DNA of 32,000 nucleotides, from assembly GCF_000284115.1 (NCBI RefSeq), contig NC_017080.1, forward strand, positions 1,530,001 to 1,562,000. The letters run 5' to 3'. How positions within the stretch are numbered: the first letter of the stretch is position 1; each line of letters begins with the position of its first letter. The stretch comes from Phycisphaera mikurensis NBRC 102666. GTDB lineage: Bacteria; Planctomycetota; Phycisphaerae; Phycisphaerales; Phycisphaeraceae. The notes beneath the pieces were generated by a model. It searched no databases. It saw only the letters and a program-made list of their open reading frames with translations, and was not told the DNA's origin. A program made the position numbers and the translations under genes. Of the stretch, positions 2,659 to 32,000 are shown one piece after another.

Positions 2659-2704
2659 CCGCGGACCGCCGGCGTTCCGGGCCGTTCCGAGCGACGGTCC
2701 GCGG
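2659..2704. repeat. GC-rich hairpin element (family X), probable terminator for the convergent genes
   Basis: CCGCGGACCGCCG (2659-2671) pairs with CGACGGTCCGCGG (2692-2704), with one mismatch in 13 bp. The stem has the same sequence as the perfect 14-bp repeat at 26941-26986. It sits 6 nt after the GH25 stop codon. Confidence 0.6.
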
Positions 2705-2709
2705 GGGGC

Positions 2710-3489
2710 TCAGCCGACGCGGCGGCGTCGCCCGCCGAGCAGCGTGAGACCCGCGGCGGCGAGCAGGGCGGTGGCCGGTTCGGGGACCGGCGCCGAGAAG
2801 CGCAGGGCGTCGAGGTCCGCGAGGGTGCCGTCGAAGACGTTGCTGTCGACGCCGCCGGTGTTGATGCCGGGGAGGTCGCGGCGGTCGGTGTACTGGTGGA
2901 AGAGCCAGCCCTGCGGCCAGCCGCGGATGTCGGTGGGGTTCAGATTCGGGTTGCGGGTGTAGTTGGCGACCCAGAGCTCGGTCTGCAGCACCGACGCGTC
3001 GAGGAAGTCCTCGGCGTAGAACTCGCTCGCGTACACGATCGGCCGCACGCCGGTGCGGCTCTCGACGCGGTCGAGGAAGCGGTCGCTCCACGAGGTCAGG
3101 AACGACCGCCCGGCGCTCTGGAACACCTCCATGTCGAGGACCGGCGGGAGGTAGCCCTCGCCCATCGCGAAACCGGCCGTGTCCACGAAGTAGTCGGCCT
3201 CGTTGAGCGGATCGTTGGATCCGCCGGTGTCGGGGCGGGCGAAGTGGTACACGCCGATGGGCAGGTCGACGCGGTTCGCCTCCGACACGTTGCGGAAGAG
3301 CTTCGCGTCGCGGAACCCGACCCCCTCGGTCGCCTTGAGGAACGCGAAGTCGACGTTGGGCTGAGCCTGCACCGTGTCCCAGTCGACGTCGCCCTGGAAG
3401 TTGGAGACGTCGATGCCCAGGAGCCGCGCGGAGGCGCCCGGGGCCAGGAGCAGCGGGACGGCGAGGATCGGGAGGCGGCGTCGCGTCAT
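2710..3489 (-). CDS. GH25 muramidase (lysozyme) with signal peptide and C-terminal PEP-CTERM sorting domain
   Basis: GH25 motifs are present: GIDVSNFQGDVDWDTV, FAFLKATEG, PPVLDMEVF (D-x-E). The N-terminal signal is MTRRRLPILAVPLLLAPGASA. The C-terminus is VPEPATALLAAAGLTLLGGRRRRVG (PEP, TM helix, Arg cluster). Confidence 0.85.
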   Translation of the reverse strand: MTRRRLPILAVPLLLAPGASARLLGIDVSNFQGDVDWDTVQAQPNVDFAFLKATEGVGFRDAKLFRNVSEANRVDLPIGVYHFARPDTGGSNDPLNEADYFVDTAGFAMGEGYLPPVLDMEVFQSAGRSFLTSWSDRFLDRVESRTGVRPIVYASEFYAEDFLDASVLQTELWVANYTRNPNLNPTDIRGWPQGWLFHQYTDRRDLPGINTGGVDSNVFDGTLADLDALRFSAPVPEPATALLAAAGLTLLGGRRRRVG

Positions 3490-3595
3490 GGGCGGGATGT
3501 CATCGGGAGGAACGGCATCGCGTTTGCGAGGGAGGTGTCAACCCCCGGCTGGCCTGGTCGGCGCAGGCGGGGGTCGCTCCCAGAGCCTGCCGCGG

Positions 3596-4477
3596 TCAGT
3601 TGCGGTCCCAGTCGTTCAGGTCCCGCGAGCTCACCCAGTCGGTGAGCTCGTCCGGGCCCCAGACGAAATCGGGATCCTGCACGCGGACCGCGCTGCCGTG
3701 GCCGTCGGCGTAGCTCACGTTGATGGAGTTGCCGTGGCGTGCGTCCGCGTGCCCGTACGCCGCGGTCGGAGCGGCGGGACCCGGGAACAGGTAGGCGACG
3801 CCGGCCGTTTCGCCCGGCGTGTAACCCAGCGTCGAGCCGAGGTCCGGCGCACCGGTTTCCATCGCGAGGTTCTTCGAGTCCGCGAAGTGGATGGTCTCGG
3901 TCGGGTTCCGGATCATCCCGGCCTCGGGGCTCTTGTTCGCGAGCGAGGGGTCCGAGCCGGCCACCGGCTGCTCCAGCATGGACCCGACGCCCATGAAGTT
4001 CATCCCGTAGTGGCTGCGGAACCAGTCGGGGTGCCCCTTCCAGTTCGCGCTGGGGCCGCCCTTGGTGGGCACGTTGAGGAACTTCGCGTCGGTCGTCTCG
4101 AGTTCCGGGCAGATGAACACCGCCGAACCCGGCATATAATCGTCCGAGACGAGCTTGCTCACCCAGATCCACCGCTCCGAGTTCGGCGTGGGGTTGCCGG
4201 AGTTGGCGCCCGAAAACAGATTCGCGCCCTGGTAGGGCTCGAAGTTGAAGACGTTGCTGAAGGGCAGGTGTCGCTGCTTGTTGTCCGCGAGGAAGGTCTG
4301 CGACGCGATCTCCACCTGCCGGACGTTGCTCAGGCTGGCCAGGCCCCGCGCGGCACCGCGGGCGGCACCCAGCGCCGGCAGGAGGATGCCGATCAGGAGC
4401 GCGATGATGGAGATCACCACGAGCAGCTCGATCAGCGTGAAACCGTGGGCGGGATGGGTGTGCGGGCGGGGGTTCAT
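3596..4477 (-). CDS. Prepilin-type N-terminal cleavage/methylation domain protein, H-X9-DG (DUF1559-like) family
   Basis: The N-terminus [25 protein letters not shown] is a class III signal/pseudopilin motif. Near the C-terminus, [14 protein letters not shown] matches H-x9-DG. This family is typical of Planctomycetota and Verrucomicrobiota. Confidence 0.85.
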
Positions 4478-4545
4478 CTGAGCGTGATCGGGCGGCGGTG
4501 GCGGAGGCGGGCTGGAGGCGGGCCCGGGGGCTCCGCCGACGTCTT

Positions 4546-4573
4546 ATTCTAGAAGGCGATCCGACGCACGCAA
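4546..4573 (-). promoter_or_regulatory. Candidate sigma70-type promoter for the H-X9-DG gene
   Basis: The minus strand reads TTGCGT-N16-TAGAAT, about 60-70 nt upstream of the ATG at 4477. It overlaps the palindrome TTCTAGAA (4547-4554) in the least GC-rich part of the divergent intergenic region. Confidence 0.45.
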
Positions 4574-4634
4574 GGGTCTGCGGCGATGTCGATCGGATTT
4601 GCACTCAAGGTAGGCAGTTTTTGAGAGCGGCCCG

Positions 4635-4662
4635 TTGCACTTCGGCGACAGACTGCTAGCAT
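4635..4662 (+). promoter_or_regulatory. Candidate sigma70-type promoter for the PEP-CTERM gene at 4720
   Basis: TTGCAC (4635-4640), a 16-nt spacer, then TAGCAT (4657-4662), 57 nt upstream of the ATG. Two further TTGCAC copies lie nearby. Confidence 0.45.
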
Positions 4663-4719
4663 TCAGGAAGCTTCAGTCGCTGCGACCGTTGCACACGCGC
4701 CACCCCCGAGGACTCGGAC

Positions 4720-5634
4720 ATGAGAAAGATCACCACCCCCGCCGCCGCTCTGCTGCTCGCCGCCGCCCCGGCCGCTCTCGCCGCCCCCGGCGACATCCTG
4801 TTCCAGGACGACTTCGAAAGCGGTTCCATCGCGAGCTACACGGTGGAGGCGCTGAGCACCTTCGACACCGGCGACGCCGCCACGTACGGCTTCGACTACG
4901 GCAGCTTCGGCGTCCCCGGCGTCTCCGGCAACGGGCTGCTGCTGGAGACCGACGACGCGCTGACCGTGTTCGTCAACGGCCTGAGCGTCTCGACGCCGAT
5001 CTCCATCAAGTTCGACGCCATCGCCTCGGCGGTGAGCGGCGGCTCGACGGAGGCCCTGACGGCCGGCGTCGCCAACGCGCTCCTCCCCTTCGACATCGAC
5101 CTCAGCCCGAGCGACCTCAGCGAGTCGGCGGCCTCCAACGGGCTCTTCGTGGGCGCGCTGACCGACTCCGACACGGCGGGCAGCGGCGACTACGGCGTGT
5201 ACGACAGCCTCGGCGGCGCGGTGCCGACGGCCCTGTCCTTCATGGACGCGGCGGGCCTCACGGACACGGGCATCGGCTTCGGCAACGCCGCGGTCCTTCC
5301 CGAGATCCCCGGCCAGTCGTCGGCCGGCGTGCTCGACGGCCGCTCGGCGGAGTTCGAGATCCTGGTCGACGGGGCCCGTCTGCAGTGGTTCATCAACGGC
5401 ACGCTGATCACCGACGTGACCGCCAGCGCCGCGCCCACGGGCACCGTGGGCATCGGCATCTCGGATCCGTTCCCCGGCTTCAACAACGGCACCGTCGGCC
5501 AGGGCACCGGCACCGCCTTCGCGATCGACAACCTGCTGATCACCGAAACCGCCGCCATCCCCGAGCCCACGACGCTGGGTGTCGCCGCCGCGGGCCTCGC
5601 CCTGCTGGCCGGCCGCCGCCGCCGCGTCGCCTGA
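4720..5634 (+). CDS. Secreted PEP-CTERM protein, probably a concanavalin/LamG-like jelly-roll domain
   Basis: Signal peptide MRKITTPAAALLLAAAPAALAAPG. The mature start GDILFQDDFESGS and the end GTAFAIDNLLITE resemble LamG/DUF1080-type folds. The C-terminus is IPEPTTLGVAAAGLALLAGRRRRVA (PEP-CTERM). An intrinsic terminator follows. Confidence 0.8.
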   Translation: MRKITTPAAALLLAAAPAALAAPGDILFQDDFESGSIASYTVEALSTFDTGDAATYGFDYGSFGVPGVSGNGLLLETDDALTVFVNGLSVSTPISIKFDAIASAVSGGSTEALTAGVANALLPFDIDLSPSDLSESAASNGLFVGALTDSDTAGSGDYGVYDSLGGAVPTALSFMDAAGLTDTGIGFGNAAVLPEIPGQSSAGVLDGRSAEFEILVDGARLQWFINGTLITDVTASAAPTGTVGIGISDPFPGFNNGTVGQGTGTAFAIDNLLITETAAIPEPTTLGVAAAGLALLAGRRRRVA

Positions 5635-6975: not shown

Positions 6976-8454
6976 ATGATCCGCCTCGCCGCCGCTCTTG
7001 CCGCTCTGGTCGCCGGGAACGCGTCGGGCGAGCTGCAGCGGGAGGTCCGGGAGCTGATCGCGTCCGCCGCCCTCGGCGACGCGGTGGCGGGGGTGGTCGT
7101 CGCGGAGCTGACGCCCGGGGGATCCGAGGTGCGGGTCGACCTCAACGGCGACCTCGCCCTGGGCCCCGCGTCGAACATGAAGCTGGTGACCACGGCGGCG
7201 GCGCTGGACCTGCTCGGCGAGGGCTTCGCCTTCGAGACGACGCTCTCGCTGCTGCCGGCGGGAGACCGCGCACCCTCGCTGCTCGTGCGGGGCTCCGGTG
7301 ACCCGGGCTTCGGCGATCCGCCGCTGCTCGAGGCCGCCGGCGAGACGCCGGCGGGCGTGGTCGCCCGCTGGGTGGAGGCGGTGCGGGCGACGGGCCGGAC
7401 CCGCTTCGCGACGCTGCGCATGGACGACGCGATCTTCGACGCGCAGCGGGTGCACCCGGACTGGCCGGCGGACCAGCAGGCGTACTGGTACTGCGCGGAG
7501 GTGGCGGGGATCAACTTCAACGACAACTGCATCGACGTGCGGCGCGAGCCGGGGCCGGAGCCGGGGGCTCCGGCGGTGCTGCACTTCTTTCCTTCGTTCC
7601 CGGGCCTGGCGGCGCAGGCGACGAACGAGACGGTCACCGGCGAGTCCGACACGTTCGACTTCTCCCGCCCCGCCGATCGCAACGCGTTCAGCTTCACCGG
7701 CGTCGTGGACGGGCCCGGCCTCGACTACGCGGCCGTTCACGACCCCGCGCTGTTCTTCGGCCGGCACCTCGCCCACGAGCTGGCGGAGGCGGGCGTCGGG
7801 GTGGGCGAGGTGGTGCGGGGCGGCGCCCCCGCGGGTGTCGTGCCCGAGAGCCTCGGCGTGGTGAGGACGACGCTGGCCGGCGTGCTCGACCGGACCAACC
7901 GCAACTCGCAGAACCTCTTCGCCGAGGCGCTGCTCAAGCGGATGGGCCGCGAGGCGGCCGGGGAGCCGGGCTCCTTCGCCAACGGCTCGGCGGCGGTGCG
8001 GTCCTACCTCGCCCGGGTGCTCCCGGAGGCGGACCTCTCCGGGGTGGTGGTGGCCGACGGCTCGGGGCTGGCGCGGACGAACCGGCTGACCGCGCGGCTG
8101 CTGGTGGGGCTGCTCGACCGCGTCACGCGGCTGCCGCCGGCGGAGGCGCGGACCTACCGGGAGTCGCTCGCGGAGCTGGGCCGGAGCGGGACGCTGCGCC
8201 ACCGCGGCGAGGGTGTGCGGACGGCCCGGGTGTTCGCGAAGACGGGCACGATCTCGGGCGTCTCGGCGCTCTCGGGCTACCTGGTGACGCCGGCGACGGA
8301 AGAGGCGGCGGAGCGGGTCCACGCGTTCTCAATGCTGTTCAACGGATTCGCCCCGCCGGTGAGCACCCGGGACGTGCGGCGGGTGCAGGACGAGGTGCTG
8401 GCGCTGCTGGACCGCCGCCTGGCCCCGGCGGCGACGCCGGCGGAGTCGCCGTGA
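6976..8454 (+). CDS. dacB: D-alanyl-D-alanine carboxypeptidase/endopeptidase (PBP4, peptidase S13)
   Basis: SxxK is present in GPASNMKLVTTAAAL and KTG in VFAKTGTISGVSALSGY. DGSGLARTNRLT, NRNSQNLFAEALLK and the N-terminal signal are typical of the PBP4 family. Confidence 0.85.
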   Translation: MIRLAAALAALVAGNASGELQREVRELIASAALGDAVAGVVVAELTPGGSEVRVDLNGDLALGPASNMKLVTTAAALDLLGEGFAFETTLSLLPAGDRAPSLLVRGSGDPGFGDPPLLEAAGETPAGVVARWVEAVRATGRTRFATLRMDDAIFDAQRVHPDWPADQQAYWYCAEVAGINFNDNCIDVRREPGPEPGAPAVLHFFPSFPGLAAQATNETVTGESDTFDFSRPADRNAFSFTGVVDGPGLDYAAVHDPALFFGRHLAHELAEAGVGVGEVVRGGAPAGVVPESLGVVRTTLAGVLDRTNRNSQNLFAEALLKRMGREAAGEPGSFANGSAAVRSYLARVLPEADLSGVVVADGSGLARTNRLTARLLVGLLDRVTRLPPAEARTYRESLAELGRSGTLRHRGEGVRTARVFAKTGTISGVSALSGYLVTPATEEAAERVHAFSMLFNGFAPPVSTRDVRRVQDEVLALLDRRLAPAATPAESP

Positions 8455-13297: not shown

Positions 13298-14779
13298 GTG
13301 GTCGACTTCGGAAACAGCGAGAGCGGGGGCGGCGGCGACCTCCGGGCGTTCGGCGGGGCGGCCCCGGGGCCGTCGAAGCAGGGCGACGGCTGGAAGGACC
13401 GCAAGAAGAAGCCGCGGACGGTCGACCTCAGCCGCCTGCTGGATCGCCTCCCGCCGCAGGCCATCGAGGCGGAGATGGCGCTCCTGGGCTCGATGATCCT
13501 CGACTGGCGGACCGTCGGCGACGTGGTGCAGGTGCTCGTCGACGCGGAGGTGTTCCACAAGCCCGAGCACCAGTCGATCTACGCCGTGCTCGTCGAGCTC
13601 TACGACAAGCACCAGTCGATCGACATGGTGCAGCTGCATGCCAAGCTGTCCGACCGCGGCGTCCTCGAGCAGGTCGGCGGGCTGGACTACCTCGTCGAGC
13701 TCGGCGAGGCCGTGCCCTCGGCCAGCGGAGCCGTCCGCTACGCGGAGATCGTCCGCGACAAGGCGCTGCTGCGGAAGATGATCCACACGGCGGGCACGAT
13801 CCTCGAGGACTGCCACGGCTGCGACGAGCCGGTGGTGGAGCTGTTCGACAAGATCGAGAGCACCATCTTCGAGATCGCCGAGAAGCGCACGCAGGACGGC
13901 ACGGCCGCGCTGTCGGTCCTGCTGCAGGAGACCTTCGACAAGCTCGAGGCGCAGGACGGCCAGGTCATCACCGGCGTCGAAACCGGCTTCAAAGACCTCG
14001 ACGAGATGACCAACGGCCTCCAGCCCGGCGAGCTGATCATCGTCGCGGCGCGCCCGAGCATGGGCAAGACGGCCTTCGCGCTCAACGTCTCCGAGCACAT
14101 CGGGGCGGTGGCGGGGCGGCCGGTGGGCGTGTTCTCGCTGGAGATGAGCAAGCAGCAGCTGGCCCAGCGGCTGCTGTGCTCGCGGAGCCAGGTCAACTCG
14201 CACCGGCTGCGGCGGAACATGCTCTCGCGGGAGGACTTCTCGAAGCTGAGCCACGCCGTGGGCGAGCTGTCCGAGGCGCCGATCTACATCGACGACACGG
14301 CCGGCCTGACGCTGATGGGCCTGCGGGCGAAGGCTCGGCGGATGAAGCAGCGCTACGGCATCGAGGCGCTGATGGTCGACTACCTGCAGCTGATGAGCAA
14401 CCCCTCGACGAAGGACGGCCGGCAGAACGAGGTGTCCGCGATCTCGCGGGGCGTGAAGGCGCTCGCGCGGGAGCTGGAGTGCCCGATCATCTGCCTGTCG
14501 CAGCTGAACCGGGCGGCGGAGCAGCGCGAGGGGCACCGGCCGCGGATGAGCGACCTGCGCGAGTCCGGCTCCATCGAGCAGGACGCCGACGTCATCATGA
14601 TGCTGCACCGGGAGGACTACTACCACCGTGGCGATCCCGAGCACGTCGACAACAACGAGGCGGAGGTCATCGTCACCAAGCAGCGCAACGGACCGACCGG
14701 CACGGTCAAGCTGATGTTCGACGGCGGGACGACCCGCTTCAAGAACCTGGCGCTCGGCGGCTCGTCGCCGTCGTATTGA
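13298..14779 (+). CDS. dnaB: Replicative DNA helicase DnaB
   Basis: LPPQAIEAEMALLGSMIL is the DnaB N-terminal domain. Walker A is ARPSMGKTAF and Walker B is LMVDYLQLM. SQLNRAAEQREGHRPRMSDLRESGSIEQDADVIMMLHRE is also present. The start was set at the GTG at 13298; the 13118 ATG adds a junk-like Arg/Pro N-terminus. Confidence 0.9.
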   Translation: MVDFGNSESGGGGDLRAFGGAAPGPSKQGDGWKDRKKKPRTVDLSRLLDRLPPQAIEAEMALLGSMILDWRTVGDVVQVLVDAEVFHKPEHQSIYAVLVELYDKHQSIDMVQLHAKLSDRGVLEQVGGLDYLVELGEAVPSASGAVRYAEIVRDKALLRKMIHTAGTILEDCHGCDEPVVELFDKIESTIFEIAEKRTQDGTAALSVLLQETFDKLEAQDGQVITGVETGFKDLDEMTNGLQPGELIIVAARPSMGKTAFALNVSEHIGAVAGRPVGVFSLEMSKQQLAQRLLCSRSQVNSHRLRRNMLSREDFSKLSHAVGELSEAPIYIDDTAGLTLMGLRAKARRMKQRYGIEALMVDYLQLMSNPSTKDGRQNEVSAISRGVKALARELECPIICLSQLNRAAEQREGHRPRMSDLRESGSIEQDADVIMMLHREDYYHRGDPEHVDNNEAEVIVTKQRNGPTGTVKLMFDGGTTRFKNLALGGSSPSY

Positions 14780-24123: not shown

Positions 24124-24429
24124 TTAGATCTCGTGGAACGCGGTCTCAAGCAGCCGCGTCTTCTTCCGCGTCGCCCGCCGCCGGCGCGGGTCGCGGCCGA
24201 CCCGCATCGTCACGAGCTCGCAGCGCTGGCAGCGCCAGGCCGGCAGCCGGTTCGCCTTGAGGATCGCCGAGGTGCCCGGGATGGCCTCCGCGAAATCGGA
24301 AGGGCCTTCCGCGTTCCGCAACCACAGCAGCCCCTCGCTCACCGCCACGAAGCCGGCTTGCTGCCACCCGTCGCAGCTGGGGCACCGCAGCGCCTCCTCC
24401 TCGTCCGCGGGTGCATGGGGATCGCTCAC
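24124..24429 (-). CDS. Small zinc-ribbon-like hypothetical protein (101 aa)
   Basis: GTG at 24429 gives VSDPHAPADEEEALRCPSCDGW...WRCQRCELV (two CxxC pairs) with a basic tail. The ORF upstream of 24429 would overlap the GS-like gene and is rejected. Confidence 0.55.
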   Translation of the reverse strand: MSDPHAPADEEEALRCPSCDGWQQAGFVAVSEGLLWLRNAEGPSDFAEAIPGTSAILKANRLPAWRCQRCELVTMRVGRDPRRRRATRKKTRLLETAFHEI

Positions 24430-24434
24430 GGGCG

Positions 24435-24440
24435 AGGGTA
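24435..24440 (-). promoter_or_regulatory. -10-like hexamer TACCCT, 5 nt upstream of the GTG at 24429 (leaderless candidate)
   Basis: The minus strand reads GGACCTACCCT-CGCCC-GTG. Confidence 0.35.
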
Positions 24441-24500
24441 GGTCCGGATCGCCCGGCGGTACGGATCGCGGGGCGGCGCAAAATGGCTCCGCGGTGCGGA

Positions 24501-25913
24501 TCAGCCGGCGGCGGGCGCGGGTGCCCGCGGCGGGTCCACCGCGAAGAAGGCCCGCTCCCATCGCTTGTGGCCGAAGGCGAGGAAGGTCTGCTTGTAGCTG
24601 CCGAAGGCCAGCTCGCTGATCGGATCGGCCTCGAAGGCGTCGATGGCGTGCAGGAGGGTGGGCGGGAGCGTGTGGACGCCGCGGGCCCGGAGCTCCTGCT
24701 TGTCGAAGCGGTAGAGGTCGGTGTTGAAGGGGCTGCCGGGGTCGAGCCCCTGCTCGATGCCGTCGAGGCCGGCGTGGAGCATGAGGGCGGCGGCGAGGTG
24801 GGGGTTGACGCTGACGTCGACGGCCCGGTTCTCGATGCACGGGCGGTTGAGCGGGGCGCGGACCATCGCGCTGCGGTTGTTGTCGCCGTAGGCCTGGATC
24901 ACCGGGGCCCAGGAGAAGTCGCTCAGGGCGCCCTGCGCGATCAGGCCCTGGTAGCTGTTGTAAGCGGGGCAGCCGACGGCGGTGATCGCGGCGGCGTGCT
25001 TCAGCAGCCCGGCGGTGAAGTGGTACGCGGCGTCGGGCAGCGGGAGGCCGTGCGTGGCGGCGAGATCGCCGGTGCCGCGGGCTTCGCGGTCGAAGAGGTT
25101 GACACCGTTGCCATCGACGAGGCTCATGTTGAAGTGGGCCCCGCTGCGGAAATCGTCGGCGAAGGGCTTGGGCTCGAAGACCGCGACCGCCCCGATCGAA
25201 CGAGCGACCTCAGAAGCGAGGAAGCGGAAGAAGACGAGGCGATCGGCGGAGGTGAGCGCATCGGCGTGGCCGAAGTCGAACTCGTGCTGGCCGCGGCCGC
25301 ACTCCTGGTCGTAGGAGTACAGGCCCCAGCCCAAGTCCTCCAGGTGCCGGGCCATCGGCGCCAGGAAGGGGTCGCTCTCGACGGTGGCGCGCAGGTCGTA
25401 GCAGGCGTTGGGGCCCTCAAATCGCGTGCTCGTGATCGGCACGAGCCGTCCGGTTTCGGCGTCTTCCCGGAGCACGTAGAACTCCGGCTCGATGCCGAGG
25501 TGGAAGGTGAGGCCCATCGAGGCGGCGCGGTCGAGCGCGCGCTTCAGGATCCCCCGCGGGTCGCCAGCGAAGGGCGCGCCGTGGTGCCAGAGGTCGGCGT
25601 GCATCCAGGCTTTCTTCTTGTCCCACGGGCAGACCACCGCCGTGGCCGGGTCCGGAACGGCCGCGCACTCGTCCTCGTGCGGGCCGGCGAGGCCGAGGCC
25701 CTCGACGGCGCCGACGGTGTACAGCTCGGCCCCGCGGCAGAGCTTCTCGAAGCAGGAGATCGGCGTGACCTTCGCCTTGGGGTGGCCGTGGACGTCGGTC
25801 CACACGCCGAGCGCGTCGGCGACGCCGGCGGCGCGGAGCCTCTCCGCGGCCGCCGCGATGGCGGCTTCATCGAACGCGAAATCGGGCGGCAGCGGGGACT
25901 TGGCGGTGGGCAT
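24501..25913 (-). CDS. Glutamine synthetase family protein (GS-like gamma-glutamyl ligase, PuuA/GlnT-like)
   Basis: GS motifs are HLGIEPEFYV, FEPKPFADDFRSGAHFNMSL, YGDNNRSAMVRAP and IENRAVDVSVNPHLAAA. I prefer the ATG at 25913 (MPTAKS...). The 8 codons from 25937 have very low GC3 (ttt gtt gtt cga aga gat). Confidence 0.85.
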   Translation of the reverse strand: MPTAKSPLPPDFAFDEAAIAAAAERLRAAGVADALGVWTDVHGHPKAKVTPISCFEKLCRGAELYTVGAVEGLGLAGPHEDECAAVPDPATAVVCPWDKKKAWMHADLWHHGAPFAGDPRGILKRALDRAASMGLTFHLGIEPEFYVLREDAETGRLVPITSTRFEGPNACYDLRATVESDPFLAPMARHLEDLGWGLYSYDQECGRGQHEFDFGHADALTSADRLVFFRFLASEVARSIGAVAVFEPKPFADDFRSGAHFNMSLVDGNGVNLFDREARGTGDLAATHGLPLPDAAYHFTAGLLKHAAAITAVGCPAYNSYQGLIAQGALSDFSWAPVIQAYGDNNRSAMVRAPLNRPCIENRAVDVSVNPHLAAALMLHAGLDGIEQGLDPGSPFNTDLYRFDKQELRARGVHTLPPTLLHAIDAFEADPISELAFGSYKQTFLAFGHKRWERAFFAVDPPRAPAPAAG

Positions 25914-25947
25914 GGCATCTCTTCGAACAACAAACATCTTCCGGGCC

Positions 25948-26829
25948 TCACGGTGTCTGCGACCTCCAGCGCTCCGCTGAAGGTGGCTGACACCTTTGCG
26001 CTTCGGCGTCGACCCCCAACGGCGCCGCTTCGGCCTTCGCCCTCTCCAGCACCGCCGCCAGCGCCTCCCCGCAGCGACGCAGCAACGCCTCCCCGTCGGC
26101 TGCGTTGGCGAGGGAGGGCGAGCCGGTCACCCCGTTCGTGCTGGTGACGCCGACCGGGTGCGAGAAGGCGCTGCCGACGGTGCGGTCGGGGTCGTCGGCT
26201 TTGGCCATCGCGTCGCGGTCGACGAGGTGGGGGCAGAGCAAGAGCAGGAGGTCGGTCTCGGCCTTGTTCGCGTGCAGGTCGGCGGCGTCCTCGCGGAACG
26301 TCCGCCAGATCTCCGGTGTCAGCGTGAAGGTCGCGTGCAGGCCCACGAGGAGCGCGCCGAGGTGCGTGGTCCGCAGCCGGTCGACCGCGACCCGCAGCGG
26401 GGCGTCGTTGCCCATGTGGCTGCTCACCAGGATCAGCCGGTCGAAGCCGGTGGCGAGCAGCCAGGCGGCGATCGACCCGACGGCGTCCGAGAGGTTCTGG
26501 TGGCCGAGCGAGACCGTCCCGGGCCAGCGCGGCGTGTGGCCGACGCTGCAGCCGATCGCCAGCGTGGGCAGCACGACGACGCCGGTGAGCGCCGAGGCGT
26601 AGGCGCAGACGGCCTCGCCGATGATCGTGTCGCAGCCGGTGGGCAGGTGCGGGCCGTGCTGCTCGGTCGCGGCGACCGGCAGCACGGCCAGCGTGTCGCC
26701 CGCGTCGCGGCGGGCGGCGAGGGCGGGCCAGGCGAGGTGCTCCCAGAGAACCGGAGCCCCGGGCACGAGCCGGCAGGCGGCGCGGAGGTGGCCGGGCAGG
26801 TGGGCAAGCTCGGGGCGATCGTCGGCCAC
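25948..26829 (-). CDS. Creatininase/ArfB/MftE-family amidohydrolase
   Basis: LAVLPVAATEQHGPHLPTGCDT and LILVSSHMGN are family blocks. The GTG at 26829 is preceded by the SD-like AGGAAGG 5 nt upstream. The ATG at 26940 would add low-GC3 codons and is not preferred. Confidence 0.75.
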   Translation of the reverse strand: MADDRPELAHLPGHLRAACRLVPGAPVLWEHLAWPALAARRDAGDTLAVLPVAATEQHGPHLPTGCDTIIGEAVCAYASALTGVVVLPTLAIGCSVGHTPRWPGTVSLGHQNLSDAVGSIAAWLLATGFDRLILVSSHMGNDAPLRVAVDRLRTTHLGALLVGLHATFTLTPEIWRTFREDAADLHANKAETDLLLLLCPHLVDRDAMAKADDPDRTVGSAFSHPVGVTSTNGVTGSPSLANAADGEALLRRCGEALAAVLERAKAEAAPLGVDAEAQRCQPPSAERWRSQTP

Positions 26830-26880
26830 GCCGCCCTTCCTGCAAGAGCCGGGCCGGAGCGGCGGAAGCCGCGGGAACGG

Positions 26881-26894
26881 ATGCGCGTGCGCAT
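26881..26894. promoter_or_regulatory. Operator-like inverted repeat ATGCGC-GT-GCGCAT in the divergent control region
   Basis: The 6+2+6 inverted repeat directly abuts the only AT-rich patch (GCATTTAAGAGGCAT, 26890-26904) between the creatininase-family and TIM-barrel genes. Confidence 0.35.
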
Positions 26895-26940
26895 TTAAGA
26901 GGCATCCTTGCTTGGGTGCGCAGGGAGCGTGCAGCCGCAT

Positions 26941-26986
26941 CCGCGGACCGTCGGGCGGATCGTCCGAATCGACCGACGGTCCGCGG
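26941..26986. repeat. Perfect 14-bp inverted repeat (family X hairpin) in the divergent control region / 5' leader
   Basis: CCGCGGACCGTCGG (26941-26954) and CCGACGGTCCGCGG (26973-26986) are exact reverse complements across an 18-nt loop, 36 nt upstream of the GTG at 27022. Confidence 0.85.
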
Positions 26987-27021
26987 ATTCTCGCTGGCAC
27001 GGCGCTTGCATCGACCGCGAC

Positions 27022-27891
27022 GTGGAGCTCAAGCTGCTGCGTTCGATGTGGGGGGCACCGGAGGATCCGGCGGCGCTCGTCGGGCACGTGGTCGGGATGG
27101 GGATGGACGGCGTCGAAGGGCCGCCGCCCCCGACGCCCGCTGCGCGGGCCGACCTCCGCCGCCGGCTCGACGACGCCGGGCTCGTGTTCGTCGCCGAAGC
27201 CTGCACGGGCCGGCCACGGGGCGACGAGCCCGCGGCGGAGCGGTGGTGGATGGCGGATCCCGGGGCTCCGCCGGAGCGTCACCTCGACGACCTCCGCCGG
27301 GTGGTCGACGGCGCCCTGGAGATGAACGCCCTGCTCGTGAGCGGGCTGACCGGCTTCGACGCCTGGCCGCTGCAGCGTTCGATCGACTTCCTCGGCGAGC
27401 TATCCGCTCTGGACGCCGGCATCCCCGCCACCGCTGAGACGCACCGCGGCCGCAGCCTCTTCAACCCCTGGGTGACCGACACCGTCCTCGCCGCGCTCCC
27501 GGGGCTGGAGCTGACGTGCGACTTCAGCCACTGGTGCGTGGTCGCCGAGCGGCTGATCGACTCGGAGCTGCCGAGCATCGAGCGGGCGGCCGCGCGATGT
27601 CGGCACCTCCACGGCCGCGTCGGCTGGGCGCAGTCTGCGCAAGTCGGTGACCCGCGCGACCCGGTCCACGCCGACGCGCTCGCCGCTCACGAGCGCTGGT
27701 GGGACCTGTGTTGGAGCGCCCAGGAAGCACGCGGCTTCAGCACCTCCACCATGACCCTCGAGTTCGGGCCCGACGGCTACACGCCGCTGCTGCCCTTCAC
27801 CCGCCAGCCGGTCAGCGACCTGAACGACGTCATCCGCTGGATGGCCGACCGGCAGCGCGGCCGCTTCGCCGCGCGAGGATCCACCCCATGA
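27022..27891 (+). CDS. Xylose-isomerase-like TIM-barrel protein
   Basis: GTG at 27022 gives VELKLLRSMWGAPED... Family-like blocks are AETHRGRSLF, TCDFSHWCVV, RHLHGRVGWAQSAQV and TLEFGPDGY. The stop overlaps the Rieske start (ATGA). The start is uncertain; the track gives TTG at 26908. Confidence 0.7.
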   Translation: MELKLLRSMWGAPEDPAALVGHVVGMGMDGVEGPPPPTPAARADLRRRLDDAGLVFVAEACTGRPRGDEPAAERWWMADPGAPPERHLDDLRRVVDGALEMNALLVSGLTGFDAWPLQRSIDFLGELSALDAGIPATAETHRGRSLFNPWVTDTVLAALPGLELTCDFSHWCVVAERLIDSELPSIERAAARCRHLHGRVGWAQSAQVGDPRDPVHADALAAHERWWDLCWSAQEARGFSTSTMTLEFGPDGYTPLLPFTRQPVSDLNDVIRWMADRQRGRFAARGSTP

Positions 27892-29090
27892 TCGAGACCC
27901 TGATCGACCAGATCGCCGCCACCGCCGCGCTCCCGCTGGAGCGGGCGCAGACGCTGCCCGCCGCCGTCTACACCGACCCTGACTGGCACGCCTTCGAGCG
28001 GGACGCGCTGCTGCCCAAGGAATGGCTCTCGGTCGCGCACGTCTCGCAGGTGCCCCACGCCGGCGACTTCCTCCGCCTCGACGTGCTCGGTGAACCGATG
28101 CTCGTCGTCCGTGGGAAAGACGGCGTGGTCCGCGTGCTGTCCCGCGTGTGCCGCCACCGCGGGATGGACCTGATGCCCGCCGGCCACGGCTACGCCGACG
28201 CCGGCAACGAGCGGACGCTGCTGTGCCCGTATCACTACTGGAGCTACGACCTCAACGGCAAGCTCAAGGGCGCGCCGGAGATGCAGAAAGCCGAAGGCTT
28301 CGACCGCTCGGAGGTGTGCCTGCACGAGCACCGCAGCGAGATCTTCGAGGGCTTCGTCTTCGTGACGCAGGACCGCGAAGCTCCGCCGGTGGCCGAGAAG
28401 CTGGCCGGGCTCCGCGACCGGTTCATCGGCCGCTGGGGGCTCGGCGACGCCGAAGTCGTCTACGAGAAGCATTGGGAGTCGGCCTTCGACTGGAAGCTGC
28501 TCGTCGAGAACTTCATGGAGCCCTACCACCACATGGGCAGCCACCGCGACACGCTCCAGCCGATCATGCCGGCGCACGGCTGCTGGACCGAGCCCGAGGA
28601 CCCGGATTGGGTCGCGTGCCACCTGCCGCTGTCGAAGAAGCTGCAGGAGGAGGCCGACCGCAACGGCCGGCTCGCCGGCTTCACGCCCTTCCCCGGACTC
28701 GAGCCCGACGACCACAAGCAGTGGTGGGTCTTCCTGGGGCACCCGACCTTCCTGCTGTTCGTCGGGCCCAATGAAGTCTTCTGGTACCGGCTGCTCCCGA
28801 CCGGCCCGGGCACGTGCTCGCTTCTGACGACGCTGCTGGTGTCCGGTGAGGCGAAGCAGGCGGAGGACTATGCGGCCTCGTTTGCCGCCGACACGAAGCT
28901 GATCGTCGACGTCCACCTGGAGGACGTGGAGGCGCTGGAGGGCATGCAGCGGGGGGCGGCGAGCGTGGGCTGCGCCCCCGGCCGGCTCTCGCACCTGGAA
29001 GAGCCGATCCACCACTTCCAGCGCTGGCTGGCGCGGGCGGCGGAGCGGGCGATGTCGGGGCAGGGGGTGACGGTGGGCGCGACGGGATGA
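27888..29090 (+). CDS. Rieske [2Fe-2S] / mononuclear-iron oxygenase alpha subunit (GbcA/CntA-like class)
   Basis: The Rieske ligands are CRHRG...(22 residues)...CPYHYW. The catalytic-domain motif is ENFMEPYHHMGSHRD. ATG at 27888 gives MIETLIDQ..., 400 aa. The gene has ATGA overlaps on both sides. Confidence 0.85.
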   Translation: MIETLIDQIAATAALPLERAQTLPAAVYTDPDWHAFERDALLPKEWLSVAHVSQVPHAGDFLRLDVLGEPMLVVRGKDGVVRVLSRVCRHRGMDLMPAGHGYADAGNERTLLCPYHYWSYDLNGKLKGAPEMQKAEGFDRSEVCLHEHRSEIFEGFVFVTQDREAPPVAEKLAGLRDRFIGRWGLGDAEVVYEKHWESAFDWKLLVENFMEPYHHMGSHRDTLQPIMPAHGCWTEPEDPDWVACHLPLSKKLQEEADRNGRLAGFTPFPGLEPDDHKQWWVFLGHPTFLLFVGPNEVFWYRLLPTGPGTCSLLTTLLVSGEAKQAEDYAASFAADTKLIVDVHLEDVEALEGMQRGAASVGCAPGRLSHLEEPIHHFQRWLARAAERAMSGQGVTVGATG

Positions 29091-29782
29091 GCGATGGCGT
29101 CCTCCCGGAGATGGCGCGGATCGAGCCGGGCCGCTTCCTGATGGGTGCGACGGAGAACGACCGCTTCGCATCCGTGCTGGAGCTGCCGCGGCACGAGGTG
29201 GAGATCCCGCGAGCGTTCGAGATCGCGACAACACCGGTCACGCGGGCGGCCTGGGCGGCTTACGCGGGCGACGTCGGGGCCGACGATCGGCCGGTGATGG
29301 GCGTCAGCCGGGAGGACGCCGAAAGCTACCTCGACTGGCTCTCGGCGGAGACGGGGCTCACGCTGCGGCTGCCGTCCGAGGCGGAGTGGGAGTACGCGGC
29401 CCGGGCGGGCACCACCGGCGCCTTCCACACCGGCGACGACCTGACCCCGCGGCAGGCGAACTACCTCTACGACGAGCGGGCCCGGCGGGTGGGGCCGGGG
29501 CACCCGACCCCGGTGCGGGCGTACCCGCCGAATCCGTGGGGCCTCTTCGACACGCTCGGGAGCGTCGCGGAGTGGGTCGCCGACGACTGGCACCGCGGGT
29601 ACGGCGGGGGGCCGGGCGACGGCTCGGCGTGGGTCGAGGCGCCGCGGTCGCGCGTCGGCGTCGTCCGCGGCGGCGCTTGGGATCTGCTCCCGCGGCTGTG
29701 CCGGTGCGCGTACCGGGACGCGCTGGAGGTGGACGCGCGGATCGACAACGTCGGGTTCCGCTTCGTCTCGGTGCGGGGCTGA
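29087..29782 (+). CDS. Formylglycine-generating-enzyme (SUMF1/EgtB-C) fold protein, short form
   Basis: FGE-sulfatase-domain blocks are [49 protein letters not shown] and NVGFRFV. The product is 231 aa. Confidence 0.8.
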
Positions 29783-29854
29783 CACGCCGTGGCAGCCTTC
29801 GCTTGGGCCTGCCCCCCCGGCTTCGCCGGTCGTGGCTGCCGGGGCCCGGCAGCC
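29776..29854. repeat. Family Y repeat copy (inverted orientation) plus a 21-nt palindrome
   Basis: 29776-29798 (GGGCTGACACGCCGTGGCAGCCT) is the exact reverse complement of 5782-5804. GGCTGCCGGG-G-CCCGGCAGCC lies at 29834-29854. The repeat overlaps the TGA of the FGE-like gene. Confidence 0.8.
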
Positions 29855-29894
29855 CCACAGGGGCAGATGCGCGCTCTGCACGCACGATAGATAC

Positions 29895-29906
29895 ACGTGC
29901 GCACGT
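29895..29906. promoter_or_regulatory. Perfect 12-bp palindrome ACGTGCGCACGT upstream of the SBP gene
   Basis: It lies in the least GC-rich patch (CACGATAGATACACGTGCGCACGTAGC), 100 nt upstream of the ATG at 30006. It shares the GTGCGCA core with the 26881 repeat, and GATGCGCG recurs at about 29866. Confidence 0.35.
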
Positions 29907-30005
29907 AGCGGGCAGGTGAAACCGCCGGGAGGCGGCTTCGCTGCGCGGCACGCCGCTTGCACCGTCACGCGTGGAACTTCCCCGCCCGCTCCCGGACCTC
30001 CCACG

Positions 30006-31025
30006 ATGCTCACCCGCCGCCGCCTGACCGCCACCCTTGCCCGCCTCGCCGCCGCCGCGACGATCGCCGGCTCCCTCGTCCTGCCCGTTGCCTCGGCTTC
30101 CGCCCAGAACGAGCCGCTGAAGATCGGCTACAGCGACTGGCCCGGCTGGGTTGCCTGGGAGATCGGCATCCAGAAGGGCTGGTTCGAGGAGGCCGACGTC
30201 GACGTCGACTTCCTTTGGTTCGACTACGTCGCCTCCATGGACGCCTACGTGGCCGGTCGGGTCGACGCCGTGGCCATGACCAACGGCGACGCGCTGGTCA
30301 CCGGCGGCACGGGCAAGCCGTCGGTCACGATCCTCATCAACGACTACTCCAACGGCAACGACATGCTCGTCGTGAAGCCCGAGGTGAAGACGGTCGCCGG
30401 CCTGAAGGGCAAGAAGATCGGCGCCGAGCTGGGCTTCGTCGGGCACCTGCTCGCGATCACCGGGCTGGAGATGGCCGGCCTCAGCGCCGACGACGTCGAG
30501 TTCGTCGACACGCCCACCGACCAGACCGCCTCCGTGCTCGCCAACGGCGACGTTTCCGCCATCGCCGCCTGGCAGCCGAACTCCGGCGAAGCGTTGAAGG
30601 CCGTCGAGGGCGCCCGCGCGCTGTTCACCTCGGCCGATGCGCCCGGCATCATCTACGACGTCCTCGCCGTGTCGCCCGAGAGCCTGGAGTCCCGCCGCGA
30701 CGACTGGATGAAGGTCATCGGCGTGTGGTACCGCATCGTCGAGTACCTCAAGGACGAGGACAACATGGACGACGCGCTCGCCATTCTCGCCGCCCGCGTA
30801 AACGTGACGCCCCGCGAGTACGAGCCCTTCTTCGAGGGCACGTACATCCTGACGCTGGACGAGGCGATGGAGCGCTGGGAAGAGGGCGACGGCCTCGGCT
30901 CGATCTACGGGTCCACCGCGTACGTCAACGCCTTCAACGTGGAGCAGGGCGTGTACGACAAGCCGCTGGACGTGTCGGCGTACCTGGATCCGTCGCTGAT
31001 GGAGGCGTTCGCGGAGATGGATTGA
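30006..31025 (+). CDS. ABC transporter substrate-binding protein, NitT/TauT (NMT1-like) family
   Basis: The signal is [93 protein letters not shown] is typical of the family. The start is the ATG at 30006 within the track ORF 29832-31025. Confidence 0.85.
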
Positions 31026-31059
31026 GCTTCCGATGCCGCTCGCGGACCGAAGACGGGTT

Positions 31060-31092
31060 CAGCCACCTTTTCCGAGGCGGAAAAGGTGGCTG
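31060..31092. repeat. Perfect 14-bp hairpin between the SBP and permease genes
   Basis: CAGCCACCTTTTCC (31060-31073) and GGAAAAGGTGGCTG (31079-31092) are exact reverse complements across a 5-nt loop, 35 nt after the SBP stop. Confidence 0.85.
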
Positions 31093-31128
31093 GCCCCATG
31101 AGGATTGACGGACGATGGGTTTCTCGAC

Positions 31129-32000
31129 ATGGCCGCACCCCCTTCTCGATCTCCGTGGTTCGCGATCCGGCGGGAGGTGCCGACGCATCGCAGCGGGCTG
31201 CTGATGGCGGCTTCGTTCGCGGTGCCGGTGCTCATCTGGTGCGTGCTCGCGTACGTGCCCCTCTTCCACGCCGACTACCGGCTGACGGTGGTGGCCGAGC
31301 GACAGGCGGCGAACACGGCGACGCTGACCGTGGGCGACCGCGTGGAGAAGGGCTACTTCCAGGACTACCTCGACGAGGTGGCGGCGATGAACGAGCAGAT
31401 CCGGGCCCGCGTGGCCGCGGGCGATCTTGACGCCTCGACGCGGTCCAACACGAGGATCCTCCGGGCGCTGCGGCCGGTGGCGGAGTCCAACGGCCTGCTC
31501 GCGGGTGTCGACACGGGCGACAGCGGCGTGGTCGACGCGAAGCTCTACGAGCTCTGGCTCGCGGCCGCGGATGGCGAGCGACCCGAGCTGATGGCGGCGC
31601 TGTCGGAGGAGAACCAGGCGGTGGTCCGCGGCAACGCCGAGGTCCTGCGGCGGTTCCCGCCGGAGGATCGCCAGAGCAAGCCGAAGGTGCGGGAGCCGCT
31701 GCTGAACCTGCTGCCGCAGGGTGTCTCCGCCTCGCCGGTGTACCTGCCGTCGCCCGGCGAGTGCATCCGAGCCTTCGTCGACGACTTCACCACCGAGCCG
31801 CCCAACGGCCAGCCGTGGATGCACGAGCGGCTGCTGTCGTCGCTGAAGGTCGTGTTCGGCGGCTTCGGGATGGCCGTGCTGATCGGGCTGCCGCTGGGGA
31901 TTCTGTGCGGCTGCTACGGCGTCTTCGCGCGGCTGTTCGAGCCCTTCACCGACTTCTTCCGCTACATGCCGGCCCCGACCTTCAGCCTGCTGCTGGTCGC
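31129..32000 (+). CDS. ABC transporter permease (NitT/TauT family) with a large N-terminal extracytoplasmic insertion; 3' end outside the window
   Basis: My own translation from the ATG at 31129 reads MAAPPSRSPWFAIRREVPTHRSGLLMAASFAVPVLIWCVLAYV... About 155 soluble residues follow, then LPSPGECIRAF...HERLLSSLKVVFGGFGMAVLIGLPLGILCG...FFRYMPAPTFSLLLV. The frame is open to the window end and is not in the ORF track because no stop is reached. Confidence 0.8.
   Translation, partial: MAAPPSRSPWFAIRREVPTHRSGLLMAASFAVPVLIWCVLAYVPLFHADYRLTVVAERQAANTATLTVGDRVEKGYFQDYLDEVAAMNEQIRARVAAGDLDASTRSNTRILRALRPVAESNGLLAGVDTGDSGVVDAKLYELWLAAADGERPELMAALSEENQAVVRGNAEVLRRFPPEDRQSKPKVREPLLNLLPQGVSASPVYLPSPGECIRAFVDDFTTEPPNGQPWMHERLLSSLKVVFGGFGMAVLIGLPLGILCGCYGVFARLFEPFTDFFRYMPAPTFSLLLV

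Follow-up and report, generated by a model that had tools for sequence, protein, structure and literature searches.

Gene Content of the Locus

The stretch of DNA analysed here, hereafter the window, covers 32,000 nt of Phycisphaera mikurensis NBRC 102666 (assembly GCF_000284115.1, contig NC_017080.1, positions 1,530,001-1,562,000 of the forward strand) and ends within a divergent gene cluster that an earlier note had described as a two-operon uptake and catabolic system for a small N-containing (or sulfonated) compound. The cluster is real and widely conserved. Its divergent genes are as described, but what looked like two operons is really three separable modules: an importer with a guanidinase (module A); a creatininase-like hydrolase with a GmaS-like ligase (module B); and a triosephosphate isomerase (TIM) barrel, a Rieske oxygenase and a protein with the fold of formylglycine-generating enzymes (FGE) (module C). 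For the nitrogen compound, the choice comes down to guanidine and guanidino compounds, a sulfonate being left without support, and the cluster probably feeds guanidine-type compounds into nitrogen assimilation. Our preferred reading, to which we give an even chance, is that the region is most of an island of about 13 genes that scavenges nitrogen from guanidine-type compounds by the chemistry proposed below; modules B and C are uncharacterised, and they would best be read as converting substituted guanidines into free guanidine.

The G+C content of the window is about 72%, so that raw lists of open reading frames (ORFs) are noisy, and one gene per stretch was resolved by reading the ORF list together with a frame plot of third-position GC (GC3). 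The features retained are listed in Table 1, where L001 designates the P. mikurensis locus, which extends past the window end (other loci are numbered in the same way); every family named from Pfam exceeds its gathering score. Two starts are on offer for the ligase of the glutamine synthetase (GS) superfamily, an ATG at 25937 (478 aa) and position 25913 of the public annotation (470 aa), leaving 10 or 34 nt after the stop of the creatininase-family gene, which has AGGAAGG ahead of its start codon, GTG. On the plus strand, the TIM barrel/Rieske and Rieske/FGE-fold junctions are each an ATGA overlap, and a gap of 223 bp separates the FGE-fold gene from that of the substrate-binding protein (SBP). 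The genes, overlaps, gaps and AGGAAGG given in the earlier note are all present, and its remark on missing partners holds as well: no small oxygenase subunit, reductase or glutamine-amidotransferase-like hydrolase is encoded within 10 kb on either side.

Table 1. Features of the divergent cluster in the window, with the evidence for each assignment.
Feature	Position	Strand	Evidence
GS-like gamma-glutamyl ligase, GlnT/GmaS clade	24501-25937 or 25913	-	Gln-synt_C 250 bits
Creatininase-family metallo-amidohydrolase, 293 aa	25948-26829	-	PF02633 202 bits
Divergent promoter region	26830-27021	.	Palindrome ATGCGCGTGCGCAT 26881-26894 and REP-like hairpin 26941-26986
AP_endonuc_2 xylose-isomerase-like TIM barrel, divergent, 289 aa	27022-27891	+	PF01261 31.8 bits, cut-off 31.1
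Rieske non-haem-iron oxygenase alpha subunit, 400 aa	27888-29090	+	Rieske and Ring_hydroxyl_A domains (Pfam)
FGE-fold (DUF323-type) protein, 231 aa	29087-29782	+	PF03781 157 bits
NMT1/SsuA-type (NitT/TauT) SBP	30006-31025	+	Pfam; best NCBIfam TIGR03427
ATP-binding cassette (ABC) permease, cut by the window end	31129-32000 (full gene L001 13242-14648, 468 aa)	+	L001
DUF6487 Zn-ribbon, 101 aa	24124-24429	-	Pfam PF20097 29 bits, cut-off 24; gene called in L001

The Importer and the Guanidinase Past the Window End

In L001, the rest of the permease gene is followed by the genes of an ABC ATPase, which the earlier note had presumed to lie beyond the window, of a TetR protein and of an arginase-family protein, then by HypA-like and HypB-like genes; the reductase that might also have been there is not nearby. 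The arginase-family protein matches the Synechocystis guanidine hydrolase GdmH (Sll1077; 7esr/7oi1) with 505 bits over its full length (residues 23-380), and 9fek with 503 bits, while its match to guanidinobutyrase reaches 160 bits. With 239 bits, the HypB-like gene passes its cut-off; the HypA-like one, with 64 bits, stays below a cut-off of 88. Judged by its sequence, the arginase-family gene is a clear ortholog of that of the Ni-dependent GdmH, in the surroundings expected of a GdmH system.

The SBP is 30% identical to an SBP of the TIGR03427 class that is encoded directly 3' of a guanidine-I riboswitch, and the two have W/Y, D-x-S-x-G-N-D, A-W and D columns in common. Residues W45, D113, D119, W189 and D218 are invariant in its family, and two SBP families of the verrucomicrobial loci described below both keep W45, W/Y48, W51, D119, W189 and D218. 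The published guanidinium site of GimA comprises W59, W62, F205, D135 and D233; the conserved residues of the SBP form a pattern that, compared by residue spacing only, resembles this site. The permease carries an N-terminal extension of about 200 aa; its verrucomicrobial counterparts are equally long (463 aa in L005, with 51% identity over residues 8-426), and a second permease type of about 290 aa occurs beside them (L005 6418-7290).

Conservation of the Gene Order

In order to compare gene neighbourhoods, the window proteins and reference neighbours were mapped by tblastn onto 80 loci obtained from a scan with the Rieske alignment, one genome per species; these are mostly from Verrucomicrobiota (Akkermansiaceae, Luteolibacter, Haloferula), with a few from Planctomycetota and Proteobacteria. 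Thirty-eight loci are fully flanked, and context was counted within 10 kb. The canonical layout is SBP-long permease-ATPase-GS-creatininase-(MarR, short permease, SBP2)-FGE-TIM-Rieske-NikR-CgdA-CgdB-guanidine (urea) carboxylase-allophanate hydrolase. Module C is tight: TIM adjoins Rieske in 68/73 loci, FGE adjoins the TIM-Rieske pair in 66/69, and the order FGE-TIM-Rieske is found in 67 of the 80 species-representative loci. The exact order Rieske-NikR-CgdA is seen in 27 loci, with median gaps of 13-82 nt along Rieske-NikR-CgdA-CgdB-guanidine carboxylase-allophanate hydrolase, and CgdA, CgdB, the carboxylase and the allophanate hydrolase all score above their NCBIfam cut-offs. GS and creatininase genes lie within 10 kb in 31 of the 38 fully flanked loci; the guanidine carboxylase pathway does so in 23, all of which have both.

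The proposal of the earlier note, a new uptake and catabolic system for a small nitrogen compound, is supported, and the block is syntenic in many genomes. The closest relative found, L092, whose Rieske protein is 81% identical, keeps the P. mikurensis order through TetR, the arginase-family gene and HypA. Haloferula luteola (L086) has exactly the eight-gene set of the window and nothing else from the system. In the planctomycetotal variants L081-L083, a divergent GS/creatininase pair stands opposite Rieske-FGE, a second creatininase paralog takes the place of TIM, and the importer is followed by CgdAB or allophanate hydrolase. GdmH is found in P. mikurensis, L092 and the metagenome locus L093, whereas CgdAB or allophanate hydrolase are found in Verrucomicrobiota and in other Planctomycetota (L081, L083); two non-homologous guanidine-degrading systems, therefore, replace each other beside the same modules. 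In cyanobacteria (Leptolyngbya, Phormidium), only AsnC / SBP2-Rieske-TIM is present, the Leptolyngbya Rieske protein being 46% identical to that of the window, and the order in Proteobacteria is permease-Rieske-SBP2-ATPase.

The P. mikurensis cluster is, in short, composite: importer and guanidinase are divergent to creatininase/GS, and TIM-Rieske-FGE sits between the promoter and the importer. We call the modules separable because module B occurs without module C (L093, L136) and Rieske-TIM occurs without the others. Each of modules B and C, independently, adjoins or sits within operons of either known guanidine-degrading system.

Several further genes accompany the block. A full-length NikR-like protein is encoded between Rieske and CgdA in L044 (11240-11668) and in at least 27 other loci, and is also present in L136; in Verrucomicrobiota it heads the guanidine carboxylase genes. 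It scores 96 bits with NF003381 (cut-off 105) and might be a guanidine- or Ni-responsive regulator in place of a riboswitch. A variant extension 3' of the Rieske gene in 13 genome loci (L022 11173-13456) encodes a short-chain dehydrogenase/reductase (SDR), a polysaccharide-deacetylase-fold protein and a second FGE-fold protein; the best match of the polysaccharide-deacetylase-fold protein is the allantoinase PuuE (93 bits), another cyclic-ureide-type enzyme. Opposite-strand genes inside the planctomycetotal clusters encode a deoxyhypusine-synthase-like protein (L081 only) and an HRI1-like protein (L081 and L083), at L081 13674-14726 and 14937-15764 and at L083 13005-13736.

The GS-like Ligase and the Creatininase-like Hydrolase

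Membership of characterised families was judged by the NCBIfam equivalog cut-offs. The earlier note had allowed that the ligase could be a bona fide glnA product and that the genes could belong to separate characterised pathways; neither is the case, as all five enzymes of modules B and C fall below the cut-off of every characterised equivalog. The ligase scores 233 bits with type I GlnA (TIGR00653, cut-off 429) and 396 bits with its nearest family, type III GS/GlnT-GmaS (TIGR03105, cut-off 469.6). Its best solved relatives are glutamate-methylamine ligases, 9qur with 255 bits and 7cql with 216, true glutamine synthetases staying below 200. It reads SWAP where the aligned GmaS 9qur has TWAP; we take this position to be the YEAP, with the Glu327 flap, of ammonia-using GS.

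The creatininase-like hydrolase scores 100 bits with creatininase TIGR04448 (cut-off 235), 112 with MftE TIGR03964 (cut-off 172) and 69-71 with the solved creatininases (1j2t, 3a6h); no mycofactocin gene lies near it in the L001 neighbourhood. Its metal-ligand columns, E56-x-H58, D67, H138, H186 and E191, are at least 95% conserved among 43 homologs. GS-like and creatininase genes adjoin each other in 28/80 genome loci and in many metagenome loci. A second GS-like paralog (about 55% identity), directly followed by a second Rieske protein (about 42%), is encoded at L022 1602-4506 and also in L008, L027, L037, L111 and L133; such pairs hint that the substrates are related to one another and that ligase and oxygenase are functionally coupled.

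Metagenome loci were collected in a scan with the creatininase alignment. The closest metagenomic relative, L093 (creatininase 64%, GS 67%), has the order HypB-HypA-GdmH-GdmH-TetR-ATPase-permease-SBP with a divergent creatininase-GS, which is the architecture of the window without TIM, Rieske and FGE. Its tandem GdmH paralogs (2915-5415) are 85% and 66% identical to the P. mikurensis protein, and a match to RF02514 (5' ureB sRNA) at 14425-14708 shows that a urease cluster lies next to it. In L136, the order is importer / creatininase-NikR-CgdA-CgdB-carboxylase-allophanate hydrolase, with neither a GS-like nor a Rieske gene.

The metagenomic contig L137 contains three guanidine riboswitches. 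A guanidine-I aptamer (90 bits, gathering score 63) stands directly upstream of an operon that encodes, in order, a TIGR03427 SBP (530 bits), a TIM homolog, a second TIGR03427 SBP, a creatininase homolog, a GS-like homolog, an arginase-family enzyme and a nitrilase-superfamily hydrolase; the identities to the window proteins are 40% for TIM (full length), 50% for creatininase and 54% for GS-like. A second guanidine-I aptamer precedes permease-ATPase-CgdA-CgdB, and a guanidine-II aptamer follows CgdB. In the stretch L137 12127-14984, the arginase-family enzyme matches 3-guanidinopropionase (171 bits), GdmH (164) and metformin hydrolase A (160) about equally well. The gene of a 2-oxoglutarate/Fe(II) oxygenase lies between the two operons in divergent orientation, and its product may stand in for the Rieske enzyme.

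Since free guanidine is the ligand of guanidine-I riboswitches, the one in front of TIM-SBP-creatininase-GS-arginase-family in L137 also speaks for a rival reading, in which module B, possibly with the TIM barrel, would be a third ATP-dependent route acting on free guanidine itself. The ligase would then make gamma-glutamylguanidine from glutamate, and the creatininase-like or an arginase-family hydrolase would split it into glutamine and urea, or into glutamate, urea and ammonia, a scheme that parallels the carboxylation-then-deimination logic of the guanidine carboxylase pathway. The position of GS/creatininase directly after a guanidine-type importer in 28 genome loci fits it, as do the pairing of GS/creatininase with an importer without module C in L093, L123 and L129, the presence of importer, GS and creatininase with no known guanidine-degrading gene nearby in H. 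luteola and others, and the SWAP motif at what we take to be the YEAP position. Still, such a route would duplicate GdmH or guanidine carboxylase, which are next door in most loci; creatininase-type enzymes cut an acyl-N bond and would merely undo the ligation; and L136 carries the creatininase gene without the GS-like one. We know of no GS-like enzyme that accepts guanidine. All in all, we consider this route unlikely.

The TIM Barrel, the Rieske Oxygenase and the FGE-Fold Protein

A sequence search of the PDB with the TIM barrel gave no match. Its AlphaFold2 (AF2) model (pLDDT 91) aligns in Foldseek with psicose epimerases, UlaE, AsbF and DgpB-C (probability 1.0, TM about 0.6, 12-15% identity), and by its modelled fold the protein belongs to the xylose-isomerase-like superfamily (PF01261). 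E139, D167, H195 and E247 are invariant and would form its Glu-Asp-His-Glu metal site. It belongs to a small family, of which 102 representatives reach E <= 1e-30 in a set of 1.84 billion.

The FGE-fold protein scores 132 bits with the NCBIfam model of PvdO (cut-off 500); its best solved relative is also PvdO (103 bits), FGEs themselves reaching 50-56 bits. No cysteine column reaches 95% conservation among 77 homologs, so the pair of catalytic cysteines is lacking and the protein is not a formylglycine-generating enzyme.

The Rieske protein of the window is 100% identical to a P. mikurensis protein. Its CxH...CxxH and E-x3-E-x2-H-x4-H columns are invariant among 29 homologs, and both iron centres are kept; members of the family also share an insertion in the Rieske loop. 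Among solved structures, the closest are those of carnitine monooxygenase CntA and stachydrine demethylase Stc2 (113-119 bits, N-terminal half only). One could, then, see in module C nothing more than a demethylase of quaternary amines or osmolytes (GbcA/Stc2/CntA-like), or else a sulfonate system, whose adjacency to guanidine genes is coincidental: CntA, Stc2 and GbcA are its best characterised relatives, the transporter is of the NitT/TauT (SsuA/TauA) family, and the cyanobacterial and proteobacterial members have no guanidine genes nearby. The Rieske scores, however, are far under every equivalog cut-off (GbcA 133 bits against 670, over the N-terminal half only), no cognate GbcB/CntB-type reductase is encoded within 10 kb, and the cluster holds no sulfonate-cleaving enzyme. 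Chance would hardly account for the tight operon linkage of the module to CgdAB/guanidine carboxylase in 27 species and to GdmH in Phycisphaera-like genomes, and we regard a coincidental association as very improbable.

The pairing of ligase and oxygenase had been likened in the earlier note to gamma-glutamylation-dependent amine oxidation. In a scheme of this kind, the ligase would act on an alkylamine such as methylamine, and the N-alkyl carbon of the resulting gamma-glutamyl alkylamide would be hydroxylated by the Rieske enzyme. Cleavage of the hemiaminal into glutamine and an aldehyde would fall to the TIM or FGE-fold protein, and the creatininase-like protein would serve to hydrolyse an amide or formamide. 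Guanidine would be involved only indirectly, through methylamine released from methylguanidine or through mere co-location in a nitrogen-scavenging island. GS-like and oxygenase pairs reportedly have precedent in aniline and 1-naphthylamine degradation, and the ligase is closest to glutamate-methylamine ligases; moreover, the second Rieske paralog stands beside the GS-like paralog in 4 genome loci, with similar pairs in metagenomes, and GS-like and Rieske genes are found together in Planctomycetota and Verrucomicrobiota, among them Tepidisphaeraceae, where the creatininase gene is missing. The coupling is not required, however: cyanobacteria and proteobacteria have Rieske-TIM without a GS-like gene, metagenome loci have GS/creatininase without a Rieske gene, and the Rieske genes share their operons with CgdAB and guanidine carboxylase, not with the GS-like gene. 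Both SBP families, furthermore, keep the aromatic and Asp columns of riboswitch-linked guanidine-type SBPs. Alkylamine assimilation along the lines of the earlier note's analogy strikes us as a possible but improbable account of the cluster.

Regulatory Elements and Neighbouring Genes

The divergent promoter region contains the 6-2-6 palindrome ATGCGCGTGCGCAT (window 26881-26894). L092 has a near-identical copy in front of its SBP gene (7901-7914), and degenerate copies are found between TetR and gdmH (L001 16329-16342, L092 12482-12495); ATGCGCGTGCGCAT is a candidate TetR operator. When up to two mismatches are allowed, ATGCGCnnGCGCAT is not enriched over shuffles, and only its two perfect copies are noteworthy. 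The same region folds into a hairpin at 26941-26986 (50-nt; -44 kcal/mol, z -4.8), the arms of which are conserved in L092. We discarded it as a regulatory element of the operon, since the same arms and spacing, CCGCGGACCG-N26-CGGTCCGCGG, recur at window 2659-2704 and in L092 at 1297-1342 and 4893-4938, with variable inner stems; the hairpin is a dispersed repeat of the repetitive extragenic palindromic (REP) kind and is not specific to the operon.

Downstream of the ligase, the DUF6487 Zn-ribbon gene was detected by tblastn in L001 alone among 85 loci; it was, thus, rejected as a member and probably lies outside the conserved system. The rest of the window encodes unrelated housekeeping proteins, including DnaB, QueA and peptidoglycan enzymes. 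A GH25 lysozyme-family protein at window 2710-3489 bears a C-terminal PEP-CTERM sorting motif and is unrelated to the cluster.

Proposed Function

The tie to guanidine rests on three independent observations: GdmH and Ni chaperones are encoded next to the cluster, the carboxylase pathway is co-operonic with its homologs, and a guanidine-I riboswitch precedes homologs of three of its genes. In our preferred reading, the importer would bring guanidine and/or small N-substituted guanidines into the cell. Hydroxylation by the Rieske enzyme would take place at the carbon carried by a guanidino nitrogen, an oxidative N-dealkylation of the kind that its relatives perform on quaternary amines and that the unrelated MgdH performs on methylguanidine; we propose this step because of the analogy with MgdH/MgdL and because the relatives oxidise the carbon next to a cationic nitrogen. 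The TIM-barrel and/or the FGE-fold protein would resolve a stable hemiaminal or deal with the aldehyde. Enzymes of the creatininase family open a cyclic acylguanidine at its acyl-N bond, and the hydrolase of the cluster would cleave an N-acyl or cyclic guanidine bond. Using ATP, the GmaS-like ligase would convert a small amine that has been set free, or guanidine itself, into a gamma-glutamyl amide. Free guanidine would finally be hydrolysed to urea and ammonium by GdmH, or carboxylated by guanidine carboxylase in the relatives. Every chemical step of this scheme is inferred.

Several observations weigh against it. The role of the ligase is the weakest part, since oxidative dealkylation yields an aldehyde and not an amine; the enzyme might trap an amine, activate guanidine or prepare the substrate of the oxygenase. 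The Rieske enzyme lacks a reductase encoded within the 10 kb on either side. With its best NCBIfam model, that of the 'urea carboxylase-associated' SBP (TIGR03427), the SBP scores 149 bits, well below the cut-off of 334, even though it is encoded beside gdmH. No guanidine-degrading gene lies within 10 kb in 15 of the 38 fully flanked genome loci, nor does any guanidine gene lie within that distance of Rieske-TIM-SBP2 in cyanobacteria and proteobacteria, so the substrate need not be a guanidine. The riboswitch-controlled operon of L137 is without Rieske and FGE-fold genes. Lastly, Rfam finds no guanidine-I, -II, -III or -IV riboswitch in the window, either at the gathering score or at E <= 1, and no riboswitch in 7 loci of Verrucomicrobiota and Planctomycetota; two further batches of 22 metagenome loci returned tRNAs only.

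One has to keep in mind that it was not until 2017 that guanidine came to be accepted as a true nitrogen source for bacteria, that the systems known so far amount to two degradation pathways, one importer and one accessory system for demethylation, and that the natural sources of guanidine and methylated guanidines are still an open question (PMC12508155, PMC12186494). Against this background, the cluster offers five enzyme families, conserved but as yet uncharacterised, with a physical link to both known guanidine pathways in Verrucomicrobiota and Planctomycetota that are abundant in freshwater and marine waters. The finding is that of a guanidine-assimilation operon with accessory enzymes, and there is a substantial chance that genuinely new enzymology lies within it. 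In its boldest form, which we put forward tentatively and judge rather doubtful, aquatic Verrucomicrobiota, Planctomycetota and some others would possess both a Rieske plus TIM/FGE route that frees guanidine from N-alkylated guanidines and a GmaS-like/creatininase-like third ATP-dependent assimilation of guanidine or of N-acyl or cyclic guanidines. Cultured hosts (P. mikurensis, Luteolibacter algae and Haloferula luteola) make the hypothesis directly testable, and its study could show which guanidino compounds really take part in aquatic nitrogen cycling.

Comparison with Known Systems

The closest functional parallel is MgdH/MgdL of Vreelandella boliviensis, in which the 2-oxoglutarate dioxygenase MgdH turns methylguanidine by hydroxylation into a hemiaminal of surprising stability, which the small beta-barrel lyase MgdL then splits (PMC12508155). 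There too, an oxygenase gene and its partner are embedded between the importer and the guanidine-degrading genes, and the logic, from substituted guanidine to free guanidine, would be the same; the resemblance is functional and by analogy only. The P. mikurensis proteins are unrelated: a Rieske enzyme stands in place of the 2-oxoglutarate dioxygenase, and a TIM barrel and an FGE fold in place of the beta-barrel lyase, neither a 2-oxoglutarate/Fe(II) dioxygenase nor a small beta-barrel lyase domain being present in the cluster. The latter also adds the GS-like ligase and the creatininase-like hydrolase, and the planctomycetotal and verrucomicrobial loci tested differ in having no riboswitch. 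We found no description in the literature of this gene set, nor of its five enzyme families in guanidine metabolism.

Module A compares with the gdmH-ghaA-ghaB-gimABC cluster of Synechocystis (PMC12704784; PMC12186494), with which it shares a GdmH ortholog, HypA/HypB-like Ni chaperones and an adjacent NitT/TauT importer. The Synechocystis cluster is under NtcA and riboswitch control, whereas P. mikurensis has a TetR gene and no detected guanidine-I riboswitch; P. mikurensis also has five extra enzymes, and its SBP is distant (30%) from the riboswitch-linked TIGR03427 SBPs. In marine Synechococcus/Cyanobium, an unexplained 'Rieske Fe-sulfur protein', CK_00002251, is reportedly encoded downstream of a riboswitch-controlled gdmH-hypAB-ABC cluster (bioRxiv 10.1101/2022.08.17.504260). 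A search with the cyanobacterial Rieske homolog gave no picocyanobacterial match among the best 120.

With the gamma-glutamylation systems (AtdA/TdnQ, GmaS, IpuC, PuuA), the cluster shares a ligase closest to GmaS that is encoded with a Rieske oxygenase. It differs in that the window-type ligase and oxygenase are separable across genomes and that the ligase stays below the TIGR03105 cut-off; of an aniline-dioxygenase-type system, only the ligase and the alpha subunit are encoded within 10 kb, so the cluster does not qualify as one.

The Rieske protein has the two-domain, alpha-only architecture of CntA, Stc2 and GbcA and the conserved Rieske and mononuclear-iron motifs, and differs from them in a similarity confined to the N-terminal half (113-133 bits), in its conserved loop insertion and in having no partner reductase gene nearby. 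Unlike creatininase, for which no such association is known, the window homolog invariably comes with a GS-like ligase and/or a guanidine-type importer; it shares with creatininase (TIGR04448) the fold family and the metal-ligand columns, and creatinine is itself a cyclic N-acylguanidine.

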